64,000 bases of DNA from Candidatus Magasanikiibacteriota bacterium. Its GTDB lineage: Bacteria > Patescibacteriota > Patescibacteriia > Magasanikbacterales > UBA922. Positions 11,694 to 57,499 of this stretch are shown one piece after another; the first letter of the stretch is position 1; each line of letters opens with the position of its first letter. Location: contig JABIFP010000020.1 in assembly GCA_018650645.1 (NCBI GenBank), positions 82,529-146,528 of the forward strand, given 5' to 3'. The translations under genes and the position numbers were made by a program. Under the pieces are notes generated by a model, which worked only from the letters and a program-made list of their open reading frames with translations, searched no databases and was not told the origin of the DNA.

Positions 11694-12620
11694 CTAGAGT
11701 GAATAATAATGATGTTGGCCGCGCCATTTCCACAAATACTTGAACCAACTTTTTACATGAATACGTGCGAGTTTGTTTTTAAATAATGCTCTAAATACTC
11801 CTGGTACTTTCGCGGAACCTCTGCCATGAATATGTACCAGTGTCACTGTTGGCACATAATACACTGGCCACCCAGCATCCCACATCCTGCGGCACCAATC
11901 GATATCTTCATAATACATAAAGAACCGATCATCAAACATGCCCACCTGCTTCATAGCATCTGCGCGCACAAACATTGCAGACCCCATGAGGGCATCCACC
12001 GGCCGCACTTTGCTGTGGTCAATCTCTTTCATGTGATGAAACGCCACCCGCTGCTTTCCGTGATCAGTTTGACCAAGTCTTGTTCGCTGATATAACGGCT
12101 GCAATAGTGGTGGAAATCGCCAACAAGAAAATTGTAATCCACCATCCGGATACTGTAATCGTGGGCCAATCATACCAATGCGTGGATTCTCTTGCATAAA
12201 CTGGTACAGCCCCTCAATAACCGATTCACCTGTCAAAAATTCTGTGTCTGGATTCAGTGCAAAATAATATTGCGCCTCATGTGCGCTGAGACCCGCATTT
12301 TGTGCAAACCCGAATCCTTTATTCTCTGACAGCTCAATACAGTGCACATTGGGAAATCGTTTTTGCAAAAATGCTTTTATTCCATCACCCGAATTATTAT
12401 CAACCACGGTGATTTGCACAGAAAGACTGCTTTTTACTAATTCCGCGTATAGCGAAGAAAGACAGACTTCAATGTTGTCTTTCATTTTGTAGTTTACAAT
12501 GACAATTGAGACATCTTTCATATTACGTGTTCCAGTAAATACGCATCTGTTTCCATGAGAGTTGGCGTTTGGCAGTAATTTCTTTTCTTCTCTTACGAAT
12601 CGACCCATAGTTACGCACAC
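11694..12620 (-). CDS. Glycosyltransferase family 2 (rhamnosyltransferase-like)
   Basis: VSIVIVNYK...VVDNNSGDG GT-A N-terminus and YYEDIDWCRR motif. The true start is probably the internal MKDVSIV, which removes the overlap with the upstream gene. Confidence 0.7.
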   Translation of the reverse strand: MCVTMGRFVREEKKLLPNANSHGNRCVFTGTRNMKDVSIVIVNYKMKDNIEVCLSSLYAELVKSSLSVQITVVDNNSGDGIKAFLQKRFPNVHCIELSENKGFGFAQNAGLSAHEAQYYFALNPDTEFLTGESVIEGLYQFMQENPRIGMIGPRLQYPDGGLQFSCWRFPPLLQPLYQRTRLGQTDHGKQRVAFHHMKEIDHSKVRPVDALMGSAMFVRADAMKQVGMFDDRFFMYYEDIDWCRRMWDAGWPVYYVPTVTLVHIHGRGSAKVPGVFRALFKNKLARIHVKSWFKYLWKWRGQHHYYSL

Positions 12621-14465: not shown

Positions 14466-14502
14466 GGAAAAAAACAACCCCTACGTCGCACGGACGTAGG
14501 GG
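14466..14502 (-). terminator. Intrinsic terminator for the foreign gene: CCCCTACGTC-GCACG-GACGTAGGGG followed by a T-run on the minus strand
   Basis: Perfect 10-bp stem, 5-nt loop, and a T7 tract on the minus strand immediately downstream of the stop at 14538. Confidence 0.65.
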
Positions 14503-14537: not shown

Positions 14538-15074
14538 TCAGCCCGTGAAGGTGACCAGCCGCGCCGCGATGTCGGCAAGCTCGAGGATCTCCACGGACAT
14601 GTCCGTCAGACTGCCCACCGGCACCAGGACCGCATCGTAGCCGATGATCCGGTTCTGGTCCTTCTGGAGCAAGTGCGAAAGCGCCCACACCTCACCGTCG
14701 ACGACGAAGTTTCCGCTCTCATCGACCGTGAACTCCTTCTTCTGGAAGACGATCCAGTGGGTCAGGCCCGCGCGGTGGACAACCTTGCCATCCTTCACGC
14801 AGATGAAGCCAGCGATCGCTTCCGCAGGCATGGCCGACTCACCTTGCCCGTTGTAGTACGTGACCCCTTCCGGGCACACCAGGCGAAGGGTCGGCTCGGC
14901 GTCGATGATGGGCGCGCCGTACGCGCCGTTCTTCAACTGGTAGAAGAGGTTCTGACCATCTTTCCCCGGGTTGAAGAAGTTGTAGCTGTCCGCCTCGTAG
15001 GTCATGGTGGTCTTGCTGTCCCCCACGACTGCGAACTCAAACACCCACTGACCACAGGTGATTTTCACCTTCAT
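14538..15074 (-). CDS. Compositionally foreign (high-G+C) hypothetical protein of 178 aa (MKVKITCGQWVFEF...); function unknown
   Basis: Strong G/C bias at third codon positions, unlike the neighbours. Consensus SD AAGGAG 6 nt before the ATG at 15074. Own terminator. The supplied 206-aa ORF extends upstream of the SD-supported start. Confidence 0.6.
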   Translation of the reverse strand: MKVKITCGQWVFEFAVVGDSKTTMTYEADSYNFFNPGKDGQNLFYQLKNGAYGAPIIDAEPTLRLVCPEGVTYYNGQGESAMPAEAIAGFICVKDGKVVHRAGLTHWIVFQKKEFTVDESGNFVVDGEVWALSHLLQKDQNRIIGYDAVLVPVGSLTDMSVEILELADIAARLVTFTG

Positions 15075-15105
15075 CTCAAACTCCTTAAGTCGTGCTCTCC
15101 ACACC

Positions 15106-15135
15106 CAAAAAACAGGCGTAGATACACCTGTTTTA
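15106..15135 (-). terminator. Hairpin plus T-run on the minus strand, downstream of the 15162..15947 gene
   Basis: ACAGG-TGTATCTACG-CCTGT followed by TTTTTT on the minus strand. It lies between the stop at 15162 and the SD of the foreign gene. Confidence 0.4.
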
Positions 15136-15161
15136 TCAAAAAAATCCCTATTTGTCAACCC

Positions 15162-41869: not shown

Positions 41870-42295
41870 GTGAAACACGAACTCTTGAGGGATTCCATGC
41901 GAAATGTGCTATGGACGGCTCTCTTGATTGCCGTCTTTCGATTTGTGACGTATTCACAAGACCTACCTGAGGTACTGTTCTTTGCGGCTTCCTTTGTGGT
42001 CGTCATGCAGAGGATCCTCTATGAGGTGCAGCGCTCGGCAGAGTCGAAGAAGTATCAACGGTGGGCCATCATTGGTAGCTGGTATGTTCAAAACATCAGC
42101 GCCATGGCGGTGATCCTGGCGGCGATCGCCGGGCTCGGACACTGGGTGAACTTTGTGGACGGCCGATCGAACAGTGAACCCGACCCCGTGCCGCTCGCGC
42201 TGCTACTCCTGCTGTGCGTCGTCGGCCTGGCAGGCTTTCTGTCACTCGACCCAACCAACCCAACCAGCCACCTCGGTGGCAAGGAGGACAACTAG
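41870..42295 (+). CDS. Compositionally foreign (high-G+C) small 4-TM membrane protein; start is GTG 41870 or ATG 41897
   Basis: G+C-rich codons; four hydrophobic helices. GAGGGA precedes ATG 41897 by 4 nt. Own terminator directly after the stop. Confidence 0.5.
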   Translation: MKHELLRDSMRNVLWTALLIAVFRFVTYSQDLPEVLFFAASFVVVMQRILYEVQRSAESKKYQRWAIIGSWYVQNISAMAVILAAIAGLGHWVNFVDGRSNSEPDPVPLALLLLLCVVGLAGFLSLDPTNPTSHLGGKEDN

Positions 42296-49516: not shown

Positions 49517-49546
49517 AAAAAAAAACAACCGCTATGCGGTGTTTTT
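49517..49546 (-). terminator. Bidirectional intrinsic terminator (A9, ACCGC-TAT-GCGGT, T5) ending the CheY-like module transcript
   Basis: Hairpin flanked by AAAAAAAAA and TTTTT; downstream (minus strand) of the G+C-rich module. Confidence 0.5.
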
Positions 49547-49562
49547 GAAGTGATTAAGTAGA

Positions 49563-49574
49563 ATCCCCCGACGG
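49563..49574. repeat. Left arm of a 12-bp perfect inverted repeat, ATCCCCCGACGG; its partner CCGTCGGGGGAT is at 50124..50135
   Basis: Exact reverse-complement 12-mers that bracket the G+C-rich CheY-like module. Confidence 0.6.
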
Positions 49575-49708
49575 ATTCCACCCGCAATGCACCTGGCAAC
49601 TACCTTGCCTTCACAAGCCCTAGGGTCTCCAGCCCCAAAGCTCAGCGCAGCAGCTGCTGTGTATCGTGTTGCTCGTGTTGTCGTTGTCGCCGAAGCGACG
49701 TCGTAGCG

Positions 49709-50086
49709 TTAGTTCGCCAGCCGAAGGCTAGCGATCCGCAGCATAGTACCAGCAGTCGTGTAGAGCTCCCCAAGGCGCAACTTCGAAAAGTCGACCCCAG
49801 GACGCATCGAACCACTCATAACGAGGACCGGAACAGACGAGAACCTCTCGGTAATAGCCTGTTTAAGCCAGAACCCGTTATGACGGTGCTGCATGTCGAC
49901 GTCCGTAATGACTAGATCGACACGCGTGGTCTCCATCAGCTCGAGAGCCTCTGGAGGGTTATTGGCGAAGACGATGTCAACGTCCATCACGTGCACCCTG
50001 GCCATGTAGCGCAACAAGTTGCGCCGGACCAAGATCTGGATGTTCGTTTCGTCGTCGACGACCAAAACAGTGGGCTTGTTACCCAT
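49709..50086 (-). CDS. Compositionally foreign (high-G+C) single-domain response regulator (CheY-like receiver, 125 aa)
   Basis: LVVDDE acidic pocket, the LVITDVDM phospho-acceptor Asp, and the VLVMSGS Thr/Ser position. SD AGGAG 5 nt before the ATG at 50086. The supplied ORF, extended to 50152, is not supported by the SD. Confidence 0.65.
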   Translation of the reverse strand: MGNKPTVLVVDDETNIQILVRRNLLRYMARVHVMDVDIVFANNPPEALELMETTRVDLVITDVDMQHRHNGFWLKQAITERFSSVPVLVMSGSMRPGVDFSKLRLGELYTTAGTMLRIASLRLAN

Positions 50087-50123
50087 GGTTGCTCCTCTCG
50101 TTGAGGTGCACCACGGGCTTTCA

Positions 50124-50135
50124 CCGTCGGGGGAT
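50124..50135. repeat. Right arm of the 12-bp inverted repeat, CCGTCGGGGGAT
   Basis: See 49563..49574. Confidence 0.6.
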
Positions 50136-50151
50136 AGCCCCAAGTAAACCA

Positions 50152-50415
50152 TTATTTTGACGTTTTGTCAATCCCTAAGCGCGTAATAAGTTGTTGTTTT
50201 TGTTCTTTTGAAAATTGTTTAATCTGCCACTCACGCTTAAGCGCCGCAGATCTATCCGTACATTTCTCACTATACACAAGTGTTATGGGGAGCCGCGCAC
50301 GCACATATTTGGCTCCTTTGCCTGATCTGTGCACCGCTAGCCGTGATTCTAGATCTTTTGCTATTCCTGTATATAAGCTACCGTCTGTGCATGACAAAAT
50401 ATAAACTGTGTACAT
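50152..50415 (-). CDS. GIY-YIG nuclease-family small protein (YhbQ/UPF0213-like)
   Basis: YTVYILSCTDGSLYTGIAKDLESRLAVH GIY-YIG motif; 87 aa; host-like composition. Confidence 0.75.
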   Translation of the reverse strand: MYTVYILSCTDGSLYTGIAKDLESRLAVHRSGKGAKYVRARLPITLVYSEKCTDRSAALKREWQIKQFSKEQKQQLITRLGIDKTSK

Positions 50416-50421
50416 ATTTGA

Positions 50422-50457
50422 TAAAAAAAATTGGCCGGCAGCTGGAGACTGACGGCC
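50422..50457 (-). terminator. Intrinsic terminator (GGCCG-16-nt loop-CGGCC followed by T9) ending the 50573..50995 module, 6 nt upstream of the GIY-YIG start codon
   Basis: Stem GGCCG/CGGCC followed by AATTTTTTTTT on the minus strand. Confidence 0.5.
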
Positions 50458-50572
50458 TAATTCGCTCCCGAAGGAGCATCTGGGTCTTTACGAGAGGAGC
50501 ACTCACGTTCTGACCACACTCTGACTATGCCCTATTTGCCCGGAGTTGTCAAGTGAATAACTCGATGCGCTC

Positions 50573-50995
50573 CTACTGGGAAAACCTGTTCGGCGGAGGC
50601 GCCTGGGGCCTTGCCTCTTGGAGCAGATGATCGCGGAGTGCGGTAGCGGCGGCTTGCGCAGCACCGTCGATGCTCGCGGCGTCGAGCGGCCCGAGAGCTT
50701 CGGCAGCATTCTGCGCTACAAATACGCGATACGCGCCAGTGAGCGCCTCGATCTGCTCGCCGTTGAGCGGGAACTGCGCAGCGTCAAGCTCAACCTCTCT
50801 GAGCGCTTGCGTATATATATATGTTAGGAAATCCCCAACATTCCCCTCCTGCGCTGACGCCAGCTTGATCTCAGCCGAAAAGGCCTTGACCAACTCACCC
50901 TCGCAAGTGAGAACACTCCCAATTCGTTCCTCGCTGCGCTCTTCTTCAATATTACGAGCGGCCCAGACTTCTGGTACCATGTTTTCCATACCCAT
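50573..50995 (-). CDS. Compositionally foreign (high-G+C) acidic hypothetical protein (140 aa, Ala/Glu-rich, Pro-rich C-terminus)
   Basis: G+C-rich codon usage. AGGGG SD 6 nt before the ATG. A structured ~120-nt 3'UTR with a GCTCC-UUCG-GGAGC hairpin. Confidence 0.55.
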   Translation of the reverse strand: MGMENMVPEVWAARNIEEERSEERIGSVLTCEGELVKAFSAEIKLASAQEGNVGDFLTYIYTQALREVELDAAQFPLNGEQIEALTGAYRVFVAQNAAEALGPLDAASIDGAAQAAATALRDHLLQEARPQAPPPNRFSQ

Positions 50996-51085
50996 CGATT
51001 TCCCCTTTACAAATTAGCGATTCCTGCCGTATACTACTCGCGTAGTTCACAGCTAGGTGGACGAAGACATTATAACATAGACTTT

Positions 51086-53607: not shown

Positions 53608-53749
53608 ATGAATATTAATGATGCCTTCATTGATTACGACCCTATTATAACACCCACATTCTTCCCGTCAAAAAGGCTCCCAAAAACACCCCGTTTTTAA
53701 ACAAATCGGTTAATATGATATGATAGCGAAGCCTTGCGGAGGCAGAGAT

Positions 53750-56707
53750 ATGACAACAAGAACACCTGAAGAAATATTAGACCAACCCAAGGTCTCTTTA
53801 GTAGAGGTCTATTTGCAGTTGCAACAGCATTACGAAGGGGTGTTTGGTGAAAATGCTATCATTATTATGGAAGTTGGTTCATTTTACGAAGTGTATGGTG
53901 TGGATAATGCAGAGATGAAGATTGGGAAACCAAAAGAGATTGCAGAAGTACTTAACATTCAACTTACAAGACGAAATAAACGAGATCTGCAAAATAGTAT
54001 GAAGAATCCCCTCCTTGCGGGATTCCCTACTGCTACATTTGATAGATACATTGGCAGACTCACCGCAGAAAATCGCTATACCATTATTATTGTAAGGCAA
54101 AAAGGAGCACCACCAAATGTAGAGAGATATATTGACCGCGTGTTGTCTCCTGGGGTGAACTTTGATTACCGACCAGGCCACGATGAACAAACCATGGCGA
54201 GTGTGCTTGTTGAAATGTCTGGCAACATGTATAACGCGGCGTATTCAGCAATAGATGTTGCTACCGGCAAGTCCTACGTTTTTGAAGCGCACAGCACAGG
54301 GGAAGATCATACCGCTGCGCTTGATGCTATCTTTCATCTGCTCCAATCGCGTGGTACAGGAGAAGTGGTGCTCACGTGTAGCCCTGACATTGCCCCTTTT
54401 GTAACAGACTATTTGGAACTCCAAAATATTGGCAGCCTAACAACGCAAGAAAAACGACTTGATGTAGCGTTTCAAAATACGCTGCTCGGCTCAACATATA
54501 ATATTGAATCATACCTTTCTGCGGTTGAAACACTCGATTTAGAAAAGACACCACTTGCTTCTGAAGCGCTGGCGCTTGTCATCGATTGGATTATTCAGCA
54601 TGAACGGCCTTTGGCAGAACGACTGCATCGACCAATGCTTTTGCGCAATAATGCCTTTTTATATTTAGGAAACGATCCACTCCATCAGCTTGCAATGCTG
54701 TCTCATGATCCGCATGAGCAGACTATTCTCAAACTCATGAACCATACGCGCACCAGCATTGGTCGCAGGCTTTTGAAAGACCGACTCCTCCACCCTATTA
54801 CCAATCCAGAAGAAATGACGGCGCGATATGATTTAGCAGATGCCGTGGCGCCACTGATTACGGAAATTGAAATTCATTTGCGTGAAGTGTATGACATAGA
54901 ACGCCTTGCCCGCAGATTACGGCTTGGTCGGCTGCATCCGTTTGAAGTAAACTTTTTGTTCGACTCTCTTGAAGCAGCCATTAATATTATTACCACGCTT
55001 GAGTCTCAAGATCTTCCTGCAATAAAACAGCTGCAGGATCATAAAGAAACCATTCAAACCTGTATTAAAGAAGTGAAAGCACATTTTTCACTTTCAGAAA
55101 CTGGGCAAGTGACCAATCAAGCTATTTCAAGGTCTTTGTTTAAACAAGGATTTGATAAAGAACTCGATGCCATGCTTGCGCAAAAAGAAGCTGAAGAAGC
55201 AAAGCTTGAGCTGATTAAAGAAAAAATGGTTGAGCTGCTCCTTGATGCAACGGGAAAAGACGAGAGCAACTTTGTGGTAATAAAACAAATGGATAAAGAT
55301 GGTCACTACATTTCTTTGACCAAAAGCCGGTATGCACAAATTCAAGAAGCGCTTAGTGACACGTACGTGTCGATTGATGAAACCGTGTATGCATTTTCTG
55401 ATTTCAGATTTAAAGTGCAAGTTGGCAATGTAAAAATCACCGCAGGAATTATTGATGACGTCTCTGGTAGTATTGTTTCTTTACAAACAAAAATAATTGG
55501 TCGAGTACGTGAACTATTTGCACAAGAGCTTGTAAGTTTGGACACAACCTTTGGCGATACTATTCATATGGTAAGTGGATTACTTGCCGCGATTGATGTA
55601 GCTGTTTCTACCGCTAAGGCGGCACAAACGTTGCGGCTCGTAAGGCCAGAACTTACCGCATCAAAAAATCATGAAAACTATTTAGAGATTGCAGATTTAC
55701 GCCACCCTCTTGTAGAGGCGCGTGAGGAAAATGGAATTTATATAACAAATAATGTACTGCTCGGTTCTGCTGAGTATACTAATGACAATACACTACCAAT
55801 GCTGCCTGAAGCTGATGATGTGCGCGGCCTTTTGCTATACGGCATCAATGCAAGTGGAAAGTCGTCCTTTATGAAAGCTATAGGGATTGCTGTAATGCTT
55901 GCTCAAGCTGGGTTTTTTGTTCCAGCAACCAGGATGCGATTTAGTCCATTTGAAGAACTCTTTACGCGAATATTAGCAAAAGATAATGTAGAGCGCGGTC
56001 TTTCTTCCTTTGCAGTAGAAATGATGGAACTTAAAAATATTTTTACGCGCTGCTCCCCAAAAAGTTTGATTCTAGGCGATGAGATTTGCCGTGGAACAGA
56101 AACACTTTCTGCTATTGCTATTGTAAGCGCCGCAGTAAAGCGCCTCAGTGAAAAAGGAAGTCTCTTTTTGTTCACCACCCATCTGCATCAGCTAGCAAAC
56201 CTAGATGTGTTCTCTTCCCTACCGCATGTGGTCTGTGGCCACCTTGCCGTTCGGTATGATGAAGCGCAGGATTTGCTTATCTTTGACAGAACTCTGCAAC
56301 AAGGAAGTGGAAGTAGCATTTACGGACTCGAGTTTGCGCAGTCTCTTCACATGGATGAAACCTTCCTCAAAGATGCCATGAATATCCGGAAACATTTGGC
56401 CGATGATTTTGATGAACTGGAACTACTCACAAAAAAAGTAAAAAGTGCATATAATAAAGACCTGTTCTTATCTTCGTGCAGCTTGTGTCATAATAAAGCA
56501 GAAGAAACACATCATATTTCTCCGCAAGAGATTGCAGATAAGCACGGAAACATTGGTCACTTTCATAAAAATCATAAAGCCAACCTTATTACCCTTTGCG
56601 ATGATTGTCATGACAATATCCATCACGGGAAAATAAAAGTGAAAGGATATGTGATGACGAGTAAAGGGTTGCAGCTGGATGTTGAGGAGATGGAACAAGA
56701 ATCATAA
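53750..56707 (+). CDS. MutS-family protein with C-terminal HNH endonuclease domain (MutS-HNH fusion)
   Basis: MutS domain I (GSFYEVYGVDNAE), Walker A GINASGKSSFMKAIG, and a C-terminal HNH motif (C..CH...HHI.P...HGNIGHFH.NH..NLITLCDDCHDNIHHG). SD GGAGG precedes the ATG at 53750; the supplied ORF starts at 53720. Confidence 0.75.
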   Translation: MTTRTPEEILDQPKVSLVEVYLQLQQHYEGVFGENAIIIMEVGSFYEVYGVDNAEMKIGKPKEIAEVLNIQLTRRNKRDLQNSMKNPLLAGFPTATFDRYIGRLTAENRYTIIIVRQKGAPPNVERYIDRVLSPGVNFDYRPGHDEQTMASVLVEMSGNMYNAAYSAIDVATGKSYVFEAHSTGEDHTAALDAIFHLLQSRGTGEVVLTCSPDIAPFVTDYLELQNIGSLTTQEKRLDVAFQNTLLGSTYNIESYLSAVETLDLEKTPLASEALALVIDWIIQHERPLAERLHRPMLLRNNAFLYLGNDPLHQLAMLSHDPHEQTILKLMNHTRTSIGRRLLKDRLLHPITNPEEMTARYDLADAVAPLITEIEIHLREVYDIERLARRLRLGRLHPFEVNFLFDSLEAAINIITTLESQDLPAIKQLQDHKETIQTCIKEVKAHFSLSETGQVTNQAISRSLFKQGFDKELDAMLAQKEAEEAKLELIKEKMVELLLDATGKDESNFVVIKQMDKDGHYISLTKSRYAQIQEALSDTYVSIDETVYAFSDFRFKVQVGNVKITAGIIDDVSGSIVSLQTKIIGRVRELFAQELVSLDTTFGDTIHMVSGLLAAIDVAVSTAKAAQTLRLVRPELTASKNHENYLEIADLRHPLVEAREENGIYITNNVLLGSAEYTNDNTLPMLPEADDVRGLLLYGINASGKSSFMKAIGIAVMLAQAGFFVPATRMRFSPFEELFTRILAKDNVERGLSSFAVEMMELKNIFTRCSPKSLILGDEICRGTETLSAIAIVSAAVKRLSEKGSLFLFTTHLHQLANLDVFSSLPHVVCGHLAVRYDEAQDLLIFDRTLQQGSGSSIYGLEFAQSLHMDETFLKDAMNIRKHLADDFDELELLTKKVKSAYNKDLFLSSCSLCHNKAEETHHISPQEIADKHGNIGHFHKNHKANLITLCDDCHDNIHHGKIKVKGYVMTSKGLQLDVEEMEQES

Positions 56708-56818: not shown

Positions 56819-57499
56819 CTAGAGCCTGCAGCCGTTGCGAGCCACCGAGATAGCGTTCGCGAGCTTGCTTTCGACGGTCATCCTCGTCCTCTCCTCGAGG
56901 GGATAACCACCATAGTGAGCCACCTTCACGGGAGATTCATCGTGAAGGTCTACCACGATGGGAACATTCCGTGACTTGTCACCGGACGCGAGAGAAACCG
57001 CAATGATCTTTCCCTCACGGATCGTGATCTCCGGACGCTGCTGCCCCCCAGCCGAAGTCCTCAGAAGAGACATCACGTCCCGGAGAAGATCATCGCTGAT
57101 CACGATTTCCAGCTCACCGAAGGCTCCGCGGAGTTTCGCCATCACATCCAGATAGAACTCCGCTTCACGATGTAGCTGACGCAATTGCCTAAGCTCCACG
57201 TGCAGACCCGAGATGGCCTTGTGCATCGGGAGGGCATCCTCACCCCTCCGACAATGCAGCACCAGGATGCGTCCCGAGAAAGGCCCCGCGGCAATCACTT
57301 TCGGATCGCTCTGAGGGAGCATTTTCACACGCGCGCACCGCTTCCAGCTGAGAACCGTGGGTACTGGACCCACGCCAGGATACTGCACCCAGTGCTCCAC
57401 CAGCTCTTCCAGCTGATTCTCCGTGAGTTTGATCCGCTGATCCACTAGCACGTGCTGGATCGTCGCCTTCAGGGCCGCATAGAATGCCGCACTGATCAT
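56819..57499 (-). CDS. Compositionally foreign (high-G+C) hypothetical protein (226 aa); no recognisable domain
   Basis: Strong G/C bias at third positions in an AT-rich context; own terminator; AT-rich upstream region. Confidence 0.5.
   Translation of the reverse strand: MISAAFYAALKATIQHVLVDQRIKLTENQLEELVEHWVQYPGVGPVPTVLSWKRCARVKMLPQSDPKVIAAGPFSGRILVLHCRRGEDALPMHKAISGLHVELRQLRQLHREAEFYLDVMAKLRGAFGELEIVISDDLLRDVMSLLRTSAGGQQRPEITIREGKIIAVSLASGDKSRNVPIVVDLHDESPVKVAHYGGYPLEERTRMTVESKLANAISVARNGCRL

Follow-up and report, generated by a model that had tools for sequence, protein, structure and literature searches.

The locus described here raises the question how a gene can be expressed when its start codon lies directly behind a transcription terminator. 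The DNA analysed is a stretch of 64,000 nucleotides (hereafter the window) from Candidatus Magasanikiibacteriota bacterium (GenBank assembly GCA_018650645.1, contig JABIFP010000020.1, forward-strand positions 82,529 to 146,528), a bacterium of the candidate phyla radiation (CPR). On its minus strand, a gene for a small GIY-YIG nuclease is enclosed by two GC-rich genes, which encode the acidic protein p140 and the receiver REC, and it is preceded by the terminator t1. An earlier note on this DNA had proposed that the nuclease gene has no room for a promoter and depends on read-through of t1, and that the three genes may form one unit. Our analysis points to read-through as the most likely and simplest answer and adds an RNA to the picture: a promoter-like site (P2) and a predicted structured leader lie directly upstream of t1, and the leader carries a stretch complementary to the ribosome-binding region of REC. 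This complementarity is maintained by covariation in a second lineage. The coding sequences and terminators of the locus are as follows.

50573–50995, minus strand: p140, an acidic ORFan of 140 amino acids (isoelectric point 4.4), GC-rich, with a Shine–Dalgarno (SD) sequence
50423–50457, minus strand: t1, an intrinsic terminator with an interrupted 9-bp stem, AA and U8, folding energy (dG) about -17 kcal/mol
50152–50415, minus strand: GIY-YIG nuclease gene, 87 amino acids, UPF0213 type, host-like composition, without SD and without a promoter-like site of its own
49709–50086, minus strand: REC, a single-domain response-regulator receiver of 125 amino acids (PF00072, E 5e-11)
49517–49540, minus strand: t2, ACCGCAUAGCGGU followed by U9, which closes the island 40 nt before the RseP start and is conserved in the second lineage

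The gene order had been described correctly: p140 (50995–50573) is followed by a GC-rich non-coding stretch, t1, 7 nt, the GIY-YIG gene (50415–50152) and REC. Together p140, GIY-YIG and REC make up an island of 1.55 kb between the divergent genes for LemA and RseP. Ten contigs, which stem from different marine metagenomes and assemblers, match a 4.5-kb segment spanning the locus at 100% identity, and an eleventh matches it at 99.8%; copies of the identical contig come from JGI samples 3300024261, 3300024259 and 3300072015 and from runs SRR7617949 and SRR8437084. Because the same segment recurs on independent contigs and with independent assemblers, the arrangement is real and no assembly artefact.

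The composition of the island is uneven. At a GC content of about 0.41 for the whole window, p140 reaches 0.58 (0.62 at third codon positions, GC3) and REC 0.56 (GC3 0.71), while the GIY-YIG gene, with GC 0.41 and GC3 0.35, lies within the range of the host genes (GC3 0.25–0.40), as had been claimed. SD-like 4-mers precede 5/5 high-GC open reading frames (ORFs) of the window compared to 8/62 host genes. Thus, the designation of the flanking genes as foreign holds for composition and translation signals; it does not hold in the sense of a recent arrival, as the island predates the split of two lineages with saturated synonymous sites. A CheY-like module had also been placed right behind the GIY-YIG stop. 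The GC shift indeed starts there, but REC itself starts at ATG 50086 behind the SD GAGGAG, 66 nt past the GIY-YIG stop, and this start is shared with its orthologue in the second lineage; ATG 50152, which overlaps the GIY-YIG stop, is the longest-ORF start only. A group I intron, a riboswitch or a tRNA/tmRNA was dropped as source of the GC-rich flanks: the GC-rich ORFs also show GC3 values of coding type, and an Rfam search of the whole window at the gathering threshold returned only noise.

The second Magasanikbacteria lineage, represented by contig L012 and the nearly identical L013, shows the order LemA, p140, GIY-YIG, REC, RseP, small ORF and PheS. Between the window and L012 synonymous sites are saturated (synonymous divergence, dS, about 1–2.5), and the amino acid identities of the encoded proteins span a wide range.

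LemA: 0.95
PheS: 0.85
RseP: 0.74
GIY-YIG: 0.63
REC: 0.48
p140: 0.34
p156 (a neighbour of host composition): 0.31

In six more distant relatives, whose RseP proteins are 44–57% identical, LemA and RseP are directly adjacent (65–150 bp apart) and the island is missing. As the island is present in both lineages with saturated dS and missing from these six, the sequences indicate that the 1.55-kb block is an insertion older than the split of the two lineages, old rather than recent. The GC-rich ORFs have stayed GC-rich in L012 (GC3 0.50 for p140 and 0.67 for REC). The proposed three-gene unit is upheld in that the genes travel together and keep their order in L012/L013 despite protein identities of 34–63%; a functional link between the proteins would be a further, putative step. 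At the DNA level, identity between the window and L012 is 75–90% in the flanks and 35–60% in the interior of the island, with peaks at the 5′ untranslated region (5′UTR) of p140 (74–82%), at the REC leader with its promoter-like site P3 (78%) and at t2 and the RseP promoter region (80%). Arms-race evolution is not needed to account for the divergence of p140, since p156 is as diverged (identity 0.31 and nonsynonymous divergence, dN, 0.72, compared to 0.34 and 0.69); the island genes are therefore poorly constrained orthologues and not necessarily arms-race genes.

The GIY-YIG gene is present on 13/13 contigs that carry the island, in the two lineages available, and an empty site inside the island was seen on none of them. 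Further lineages were sought in several ways. A DNA-pattern scan of metagenomes gave 0 matches, and a scan with a REC profile returned matches that did not exceed 41% identity across most of the protein or 48% across short segments and that we took as generic receivers. A word-indexed search with REC at E up to 1e-8 returned the near-identical cluster only; a viral scan for relatives of the island returned nothing; and the best RseP of a genome scan, 58% identical, lies in a locus without the island. The genome and metagenome contig collections returned neither the species of the window nor that of L012, which bounds the comparative depth, while protein-indexed assemblies contain many identical copies. 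As a separate observation, a seventh relative carries an unrelated insert of about 800 bp and ordinary composition in the LemA–RseP gap (contig L014, 2755–3567), and the same intergenic spot seems to take insertions repeatedly.

The terminator in front of the nuclease gene consists of the hairpin GGCCGuCAGUcuccaGCUGcCGGCC at 50457–50433, AA, and U8 at 50430–50423. The earlier note had described a T9 run 6 nt before the ATG; the terminator and its abutment stand, with a run of T8 and a gap of 7 nt (ATCAAAT). A simple terminator consensus scan missed t1 because of its interrupted stem. Among 14 intergenic sites of the window that combine a hairpin and a T-run, t1 is nearest to the next same-strand start, at 8 nt (counted from the last T to the A of ATG) compared to 28–3128 nt. 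L012 possesses an equivalent terminator at the same place before the GIY-YIG ATG, with a stem of unrelated sequence. A consensus scan detected no promoter-like site between t1 and the ATG in either species, and by eye no -10 of the TANNNT type was seen within 15 nt of the ATG. As both species lack a promoter-like site in this gap, the gene is most likely expressed by read-through, in agreement with the original proposal that it lacks room for its own promoter. In L012, AGGAG stands just before the ATG, a signal that would be useful only on a transcript arriving from upstream.

What such a transcript would look like is suggested by the segment between the p140 stop and t1, in which three elements were recognised.

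50524–50552, minus strand: P2, TTGACA-17-CATAGT, 20 nt after the p140 stop, scored 10/12
50423–50517, minus strand: predicted RNA of about 95 nt (leader, small RNA or both) with hairpins H1 (50517–50482), H2 (50477–50464) and H3, which is t1
50490–50501, minus strand: anti-SD stretch UGCUCCUCUCGU in apical H1, a 12-nt perfect complement of 50101–50090

P2 has the counterpart TTGACA-17-CATACT in L012, also scored 10/12, and L013 has a CATAAT -10. Between L013 and L012, 5/17 spacer positions are changed, and the hexamers and the 17-nt spacing are kept. In both species P2 is a joint-best (10/12) promoter-like site of the region and the best on the coding strand of the island, and its form is like that of the promoters of other GC-rich modules. 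H1 begins about 7 nt past the P2 -10 in both species. Its apical part has the form GAG-UKCUC-CUC, and H2 is a short stem with a UUCG loop (GCUCC-UUCG-GGAGC). The window and L012 were folded separately and gave the same predicted three-hairpin shape, in which the basal stem of H1 and the whole of H3 pair despite unrelated sequences. Thus, a predicted promoter, a structured leader and an intrinsic terminator lie directly 5′ of the GIY-YIG ORF in both species. In the earlier description this region was a structured 3′UTR of p140 and t1 the terminator of the upstream module. The structure stands as a three-hairpin fold in both species, but the fold of the p140 3′ region has a z score of only -1.8 compared to shuffles and contains its own promoter-like site, and the conserved P2 between the p140 stop and t1 points to a separate transcript. 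P2 probably defines a separate transcript or leader of about 95 nt, so that t1 would not simply belong to the upstream module. Rfam searches of both loci (E up to 10 for the window, up to 5 for L012) returned only noise and no family for this RNA.

Downstream of the GIY-YIG gene, the REC transcript contains the partner of the anti-SD stretch.

50143–50171, minus strand: P3, TTGACA-14-TGG-TTTACT, an extended -10 promoter-like site that overlaps the last GIY-YIG codons
50087–50135, minus strand: REC 5′UTR, with the 5′ arm (50135–50104), segment X (50118–50103), the small RNA target (50101–50090) and the SD GAGGAG (50097–50092)
49563–49594, minus strand: 3′UTR arm of an end-to-end ‘panhandle’ pairing with the REC 5′UTR

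Two inverted-repeat pairs occupy homologous positions in the window and L012, namely the anti-SD/SD pair and the ends of the REC mRNA. In the window, UGCUCCUCUCGU is complementary to ACGAGAGGAGCA (50101–50090), the SD region, which lies 4 nt before the REC ATG. The corresponding pair of L012, AGUUCUCCUCGGA and UCCGAGGAGAACU, measures 13 nt and has flanks that differ from those of the window. Common to both species is the CUCCUC/GAGGAG core only; four flank positions, in our interpretation of the pair tables, are changed on both sides and still paired. Dinucleotide shuffles of the leader reached the observed match length in 1/5000 cases for the window (12 nt) and 0/5000 for L012 (13 nt), and cross-species combinations reached 6 and 8 nt, close to the average of about 5.5 among shuffles. 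Hence, complementarity to the REC start region is maintained by covariation with different flanks, which points to an RNA-level link between the segment 5′ of the GIY-YIG gene and the REC gene. In the predicted read-through transcript, the pairing probability is 0.97 in the window, where the pairing is part of the minimum-energy fold, and 0.25 in L012. Among the 67 translation starts scored in the window, REC has the best duplex energy with hairpin 1 (-30.9), effectively tied with that of ORF 1291–1617 (-30.8); as RNAduplex over-extends on long segments, the statistics of exact complements were used instead.

ORF 1291–1617, on the plus strand, deserves mention as an observation of its own. Its start region with GAGGAGC is the second-best predicted anti-SD partner, and a TTGACA promoter-like site stands at 1216. 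Its GC1, GC2 and GC3 values are all about 0.5, a flatness unusual for coding sequence, and it has no family match; 1216–1617 may represent a second target or else a non-coding RNA.

The second pair of repeats joins the ends of the REC mRNA. A 32-nt imperfect inverted repeat connects 50135–50104 in the 5′UTR with 49594–49563 in the 3′UTR in both species, with 27/32 positions pairing in the window and 26/32 in L012; the pair tables, as we read them, show at least 6 double compensatory changes in the second helix of this pairing. The pairing is part of the minimum-energy fold of the whole REC mRNA in both species. In addition, a hairpin in the REC 5′UTR hides the SD and the AUG (z -3.9 in the window, -5.7 in L012). 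Because the same 5′ strand is used in both structures, the hairpin and the end-to-end pairing are alternatives. The motif flanking REC was found nowhere else in the window and in no unrelated loci, so that a dispersed repeat was rejected as its identity. P3 has the same hexamers and spacing in L012 but a different spacer and a different stretch just 3′ of the -10; the promoter scan omits P3 since its -10 has no A at position 2. The REC 3′UTR (49518–49708, minus strand; L012 1928–2125) is about 190 nt long, far longer than the end-to-end pairing requires, with z -4.1 and a UUCG hairpin right after the stop. As to the protein, the acidic pair DD (residues 11–12) and the phospho-acceptor D62 of REC align with D12/D13/D57 of CheY, REC is 48% identical to its L012 orthologue, and no kinase domain was found near it among the neighbours scanned or Pfam-labelled.

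These features can be combined into a mechanism, which we regard as evenly poised between right and wrong: an old island with nested units, in which an RNA started at P2 acts on the REC start through its anti-SD and the nuclease is made by read-through. In a common ancestor of the two Magasanikbacteria lineages, the block would have entered the gap between the divergently oriented LemA and RseP genes. It would contain three nested units on the minus strand, the first running from P1, the putative promoter of p140, through p140 to t1, the second from P2 through the three-hairpin RNA to t1, and the third from P3 through REC to t2, provided that P2 and P3 fire and that t1 terminates. The GIY-YIG gene would exactly occupy the interval from the t1 U-tract to the P3 -35 and would be made only from read-through of t1, mainly by P2 transcripts and possibly by P1 transcripts. 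The anti-SD of the P2 RNA could pair with the ribosome-binding region of REC in trans if the transcript is terminated and in cis if it is read through, and the sign of this regulation would presumably be repression. The REC mRNA, in turn, would switch between the 5′ hairpin that hides SD and AUG and the fold in which the same 5′ strand is paired to the 3′UTR. Taken together, the nuclease gene would sit inside an RNA circuit that throttles its transcription and has REC as its evident target. By analogy with the free-standing endonuclease genes of T4, a GIY-YIG gene of CPR type may plausibly have entered the space between an RNA gene and its target that were already in place.

A more far-reaching version of this mechanism is possible, though we consider it doubtful. 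Here, t1 would be a decision point: on stopping, a free anti-SD RNA would repress REC in trans, and on read-through the leader of an mRNA for GIY-YIG (plus REC) would silence REC in cis, so that the outputs of nuclease and receiver would be reciprocal and the 5′ hairpin, the 3′UTR and the small RNA would compete for the REC start. If true, the circuit would be among the earliest examples of riboregulation worked out in a CPR bacterium. In a wilder variant, the CUCCUC RNA may be a general brake on SD-dependent genes of foreign type in a mostly SD-less genome.

Several points weigh against the mechanism proposed. P1, P2, P3 and t1 are inferred from motifs and conservation, and neither P2 (CATAGT) nor P3 (TTTACT) has a perfect -10. 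Over its whole length, the p140 3′ region folds with a modest z score, and the shared three-hairpin shape is a matter of separate single-sequence folds. For the P2 RNA, a MAFFT alignment analysed with RNAalifold yielded 2 compensatory pairs only and a covariation term that was positive; the sequences have diverged too far to be aligned by sequence, which made this analysis uninformative. Inspection of the folds revealed no antiterminator alternative, and the ‘attenuator’ of the earlier note is here leaky termination rather than a demonstrated switch. The covariation comes from one species pair, as there are two independent lineages only. Finally, some promoters in this compact genome overlap the preceding terminator, and a weak promoter may lie in the T-tract of t1.

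The rival explanation that survives best, although unlikely in our judgement, holds that the hairpins are only the 3′UTR and terminator of p140 with no separate RNA, that the GIY-YIG gene is expressed by read-through from the p140 promoter, and that the complementarity to REC acts, if at all, within a long polycistronic transcript. It fits with the facts that t1 would end P1 transcripts too, that anti-SD/SD pairing in cis is thermodynamically favoured in the window, and that the P2 -10 starts with C instead of T within its overall score of 10/12. It does not explain why three sequences keep TTGACA and CATA-T precisely 17 nt apart when the spacer itself drifts between L012 and L013, nor why H1 starts at the same distance past the P2 -10 in both species.

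Improbable is a weak promoter of the GIY-YIG gene itself, located in or overlapping the t1 T-tract and possibly giving a leaderless mRNA, in which case the abutment would be genome compaction. The host genes of the window are mostly SD-less and the AU-rich start region of GIY-YIG suits SD-independent initiation. Several genes of the window start 28–47 nt after a terminator, and at least one has a readable promoter overlapping the T-tract (TTGTTT-17-TACACT at 14468–14440). This explanation is opposed by the consensus scan and the inspection by eye described above, and by the 7-nt gap between t1 and the start, which is far below all other terminator-to-start distances.

We judge it quite improbable that there is no functional unit and that three unrelated accessory genes occupy a permissive spot, their complementarities being inherited accidents. 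With five high-GC modules in 64 kb, two would lie beside one gene by chance with a probability of about 0.3 (rough estimate), and no family or defence model links p140, GIY-YIG and REC; against this, complementarity has survived in different sequences although neutral sites are saturated, and the second lineage retains both the order and the spacing.

Very improbable, lastly, are inverted repeats that serve as DNA-level ends or recombination sites of a mobile REC module and/or GIY-YIG segment promoted by the nuclease as in homing: the island is an insertion relative to other relatives, small GIY-YIG genes occur in many different CPR neighbourhoods, and T4 free-standing endonuclease genes are also promoterless and located behind terminators with the promoter of the downstream gene after them (PMC2988022), but the repeat arms match predicted transcript ends and the SD and not the composition boundaries, are unique within the window and covary instead of staying fixed, the 87-residue nuclease has no DNA-binding domain, and no contig shows an empty site inside the island.

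The comparison with known systems supports reading the locus as a variant of familiar types of RNA control, found in an unusual organism. The T4-like free-standing genes mobE and seg depend on upstream promoters and on terminator read-through, while the downstream gene keeps its own promoter (PMC2988022). Our GIY-YIG gene resembles them in being intergenic, promoterless and, as predicted, dependent on read-through, and differs in belonging to a cellular CPR genome, in encoding no DNA-binding domain and in giving no evidence of homing or of presence/absence polymorphism. Ssn site-specific single-stranded DNA nucleases (cd10448) are small GIY-YIG proteins of a single domain, and hairpin-forming sequences flank their genes (PMC11893778). 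The likeness consists in the small single-domain protein and the hairpins around the gene; here, however, the hairpins are a terminator and locus-unique mRNA structures, and the nearest solved relatives are UPF0213 proteins. The SRM pattern of Ssn (PMC11893778) matched once in the 64-kb window (at 11841, far from the gene) and 0 times in L012, compared to 0–1 in shuffles; at chance level and not near the gene, it led us to reject an Ssn/NTS system.

For the RNA part, pairing of a 3′UTR with the 5′UTR of the same mRNA is described for Staphylococcus aureus icaR (PMC3868564) and Bacillus subtilis hbs (PMC5737220). The REC mRNA is similar in that its 3′UTR is predicted to pair with its own 5′UTR, and an effect on translation or stability would be expected. 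A difference lies in the strand that is bound: the REC 3′UTR pairs with the strand that otherwise masks SD and AUG and is expected to open the start region. The icaR 3′UTR reportedly masks the SD itself. In hok/Sok-type type I toxin–antitoxin systems, the target mRNA folds back end to end and sequesters its start, and a complementary small RNA has a separate promoter. By analogy, the REC mRNA with its fold-back and hidden start and the complementary RNA with its predicted own promoter would be comparable, but in place of a small membrane toxin the target encodes a soluble receiver of 125 amino acids, the RNA is encoded upstream of it on the same strand instead of antisense to it, and there is no evidence of toxicity. 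As the target is a receiver domain, the locus is not a type I toxin–antitoxin system. To our knowledge, regulatory RNAs of CPR/Patescibacteria, which are uncultured organisms, have been little explored. The locus offers a compact hypothesis drawn from sequence only, with a candidate small RNA, a target with covarying complementarity and an mRNA 5′ strand with two pairing options.

The GIY-YIG protein itself matches PF01541 (E 1.6e-18) over profile positions 1–76 of 78, i.e. the full-length catalytic domain, and consists of this domain only, without a DNA-binding or target-recognition domain. Its nearest solved proteins are both UPF0213 members, 1ZG2 (BH0048, E 4.7e-17) and 1YWL (EF2693, E 2.4e-14), aligned over residues 3–81. 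Such stand-alone proteins of the UPF0213/YhbQ type (1ZG2, 1YWL) have the same single catalytic domain of about 80–100 amino acids; compared with them, the gene studied here stands out as promoterless by motif scan and located behind an RNA gene or leader. Homologues with 60–72% identity occur in other CPR genomes beside RecQ, DeoC, NAPRTase and other unrelated genes, which answers the question of differing neighbours in relatives in the affirmative, and no common upstream element was found among these CPR homologues. The suggestion of a defence or homing cassette was not supported: the protein is a bare domain of UPF0213 type with homologues in unrelated neighbourhoods, PADLOC gave no match for p140 or GIY-YIG and only insignificant ones for REC (E 0.016–0.044), and PHROGs gave nothing beyond generic receiver-domain families for REC, NCBIfam nothing specific. 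We know of no established function and no description of regulation for the widespread UPF0213 family, so that a gene without promoter behind a terminator provides a concrete expression context for one of its GIY-YIG proteins.

At the other end of the island, two promoter-like sites lie between p140 and LemA.

51069–51077, minus strand: P1, a putative extended -10 (TGtTATAAT) before p140, read from the sequence and identical in L012
51006–51035, plus strand: LemA promoter-like site TTTACA-18-TATACT, scored 10/12, antisense within the p140 5′UTR and at the homologous place in L012 (629–600)

The 74–82% conservation of the p140 5′UTR is accounted for by the LemA promoter-like site, which sits there on the opposite strand. 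This site and P1 face each other (51006–51077), and divergent transcripts would share about 20 nt at their 5′ ends.

p140 is nearly an orphan: HMMER run on 1.84 billion representative sequences and a profile search that covered 5.8 billion clusters found only three lineages of it, together with a partial fusion of 208 amino acids that is taken up below. That of L012/L013 (P0123) is 34% identical to p140. A third homologue (P0124, 147 amino acids, 29% identical; JGI 3300072015, contig of 2.4 kb) is encoded beside a glycosyltransferase gene, and its sample is also the source of one copy of the window’s contig. The AlphaFold2 model of p140 is a four-helix bundle with a predicted local distance difference test (pLDDT) score of 82, for which Foldseek gave no match below E 0.5 in the PDB. 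In Pfam p140 has no match and in NCBIfam a far sub-threshold one only (E 0.037). A natural PAS–p140 fusion (P0122 on contig L094) was rejected as a probable assembly chimera on account of an abrupt switch to unrelated DNA of 67% GC at window position 50762. On this contig (1–3267, ENA ERZ23491197), 1.58 kb of the 67% GC DNA with acyltransferase and PAS genes is joined to window 50762–49113 (99.7% identity), probably by a chimeric joint at a GC-rich k-mer.

The window contains five single-gene GC-rich modules, the coordinates of which are those of the longest ORFs: 14538–15158 (minus strand), 41870–42295 (plus), 49709–50152 (minus), 50573–50995 (minus) and 56819–57499 (minus). They show GC 0.56–0.58 and GC3 0.62–0.79, and each has an SD and its own terminator. 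Four are ORFans without family match, the fifth is REC. The TTGACA -35 found in the island also precedes other GC-rich modules; it is perfect in 4/5, p140 having an extended -10 instead, and TTGACA is enriched in the intergenic DNA of the window (about 9–10/22 copies). No paralogues of GIY-YIG or of any high-GC ORF were found within the window. The GC-rich ‘foreign’ modules of this genome thus appear as long-term residents with their own regulatory signals and not as recent arrivals.

Outside the island, the plus-strand ORF 53720–56707 encodes a MutS homologue of 995 amino acids with a Cys/His-rich, HNH-like tail (…CHNKAEETHH…HKNHKANLITLCDDCHDNIHHG), which suggests a MutS–nuclease fusion.

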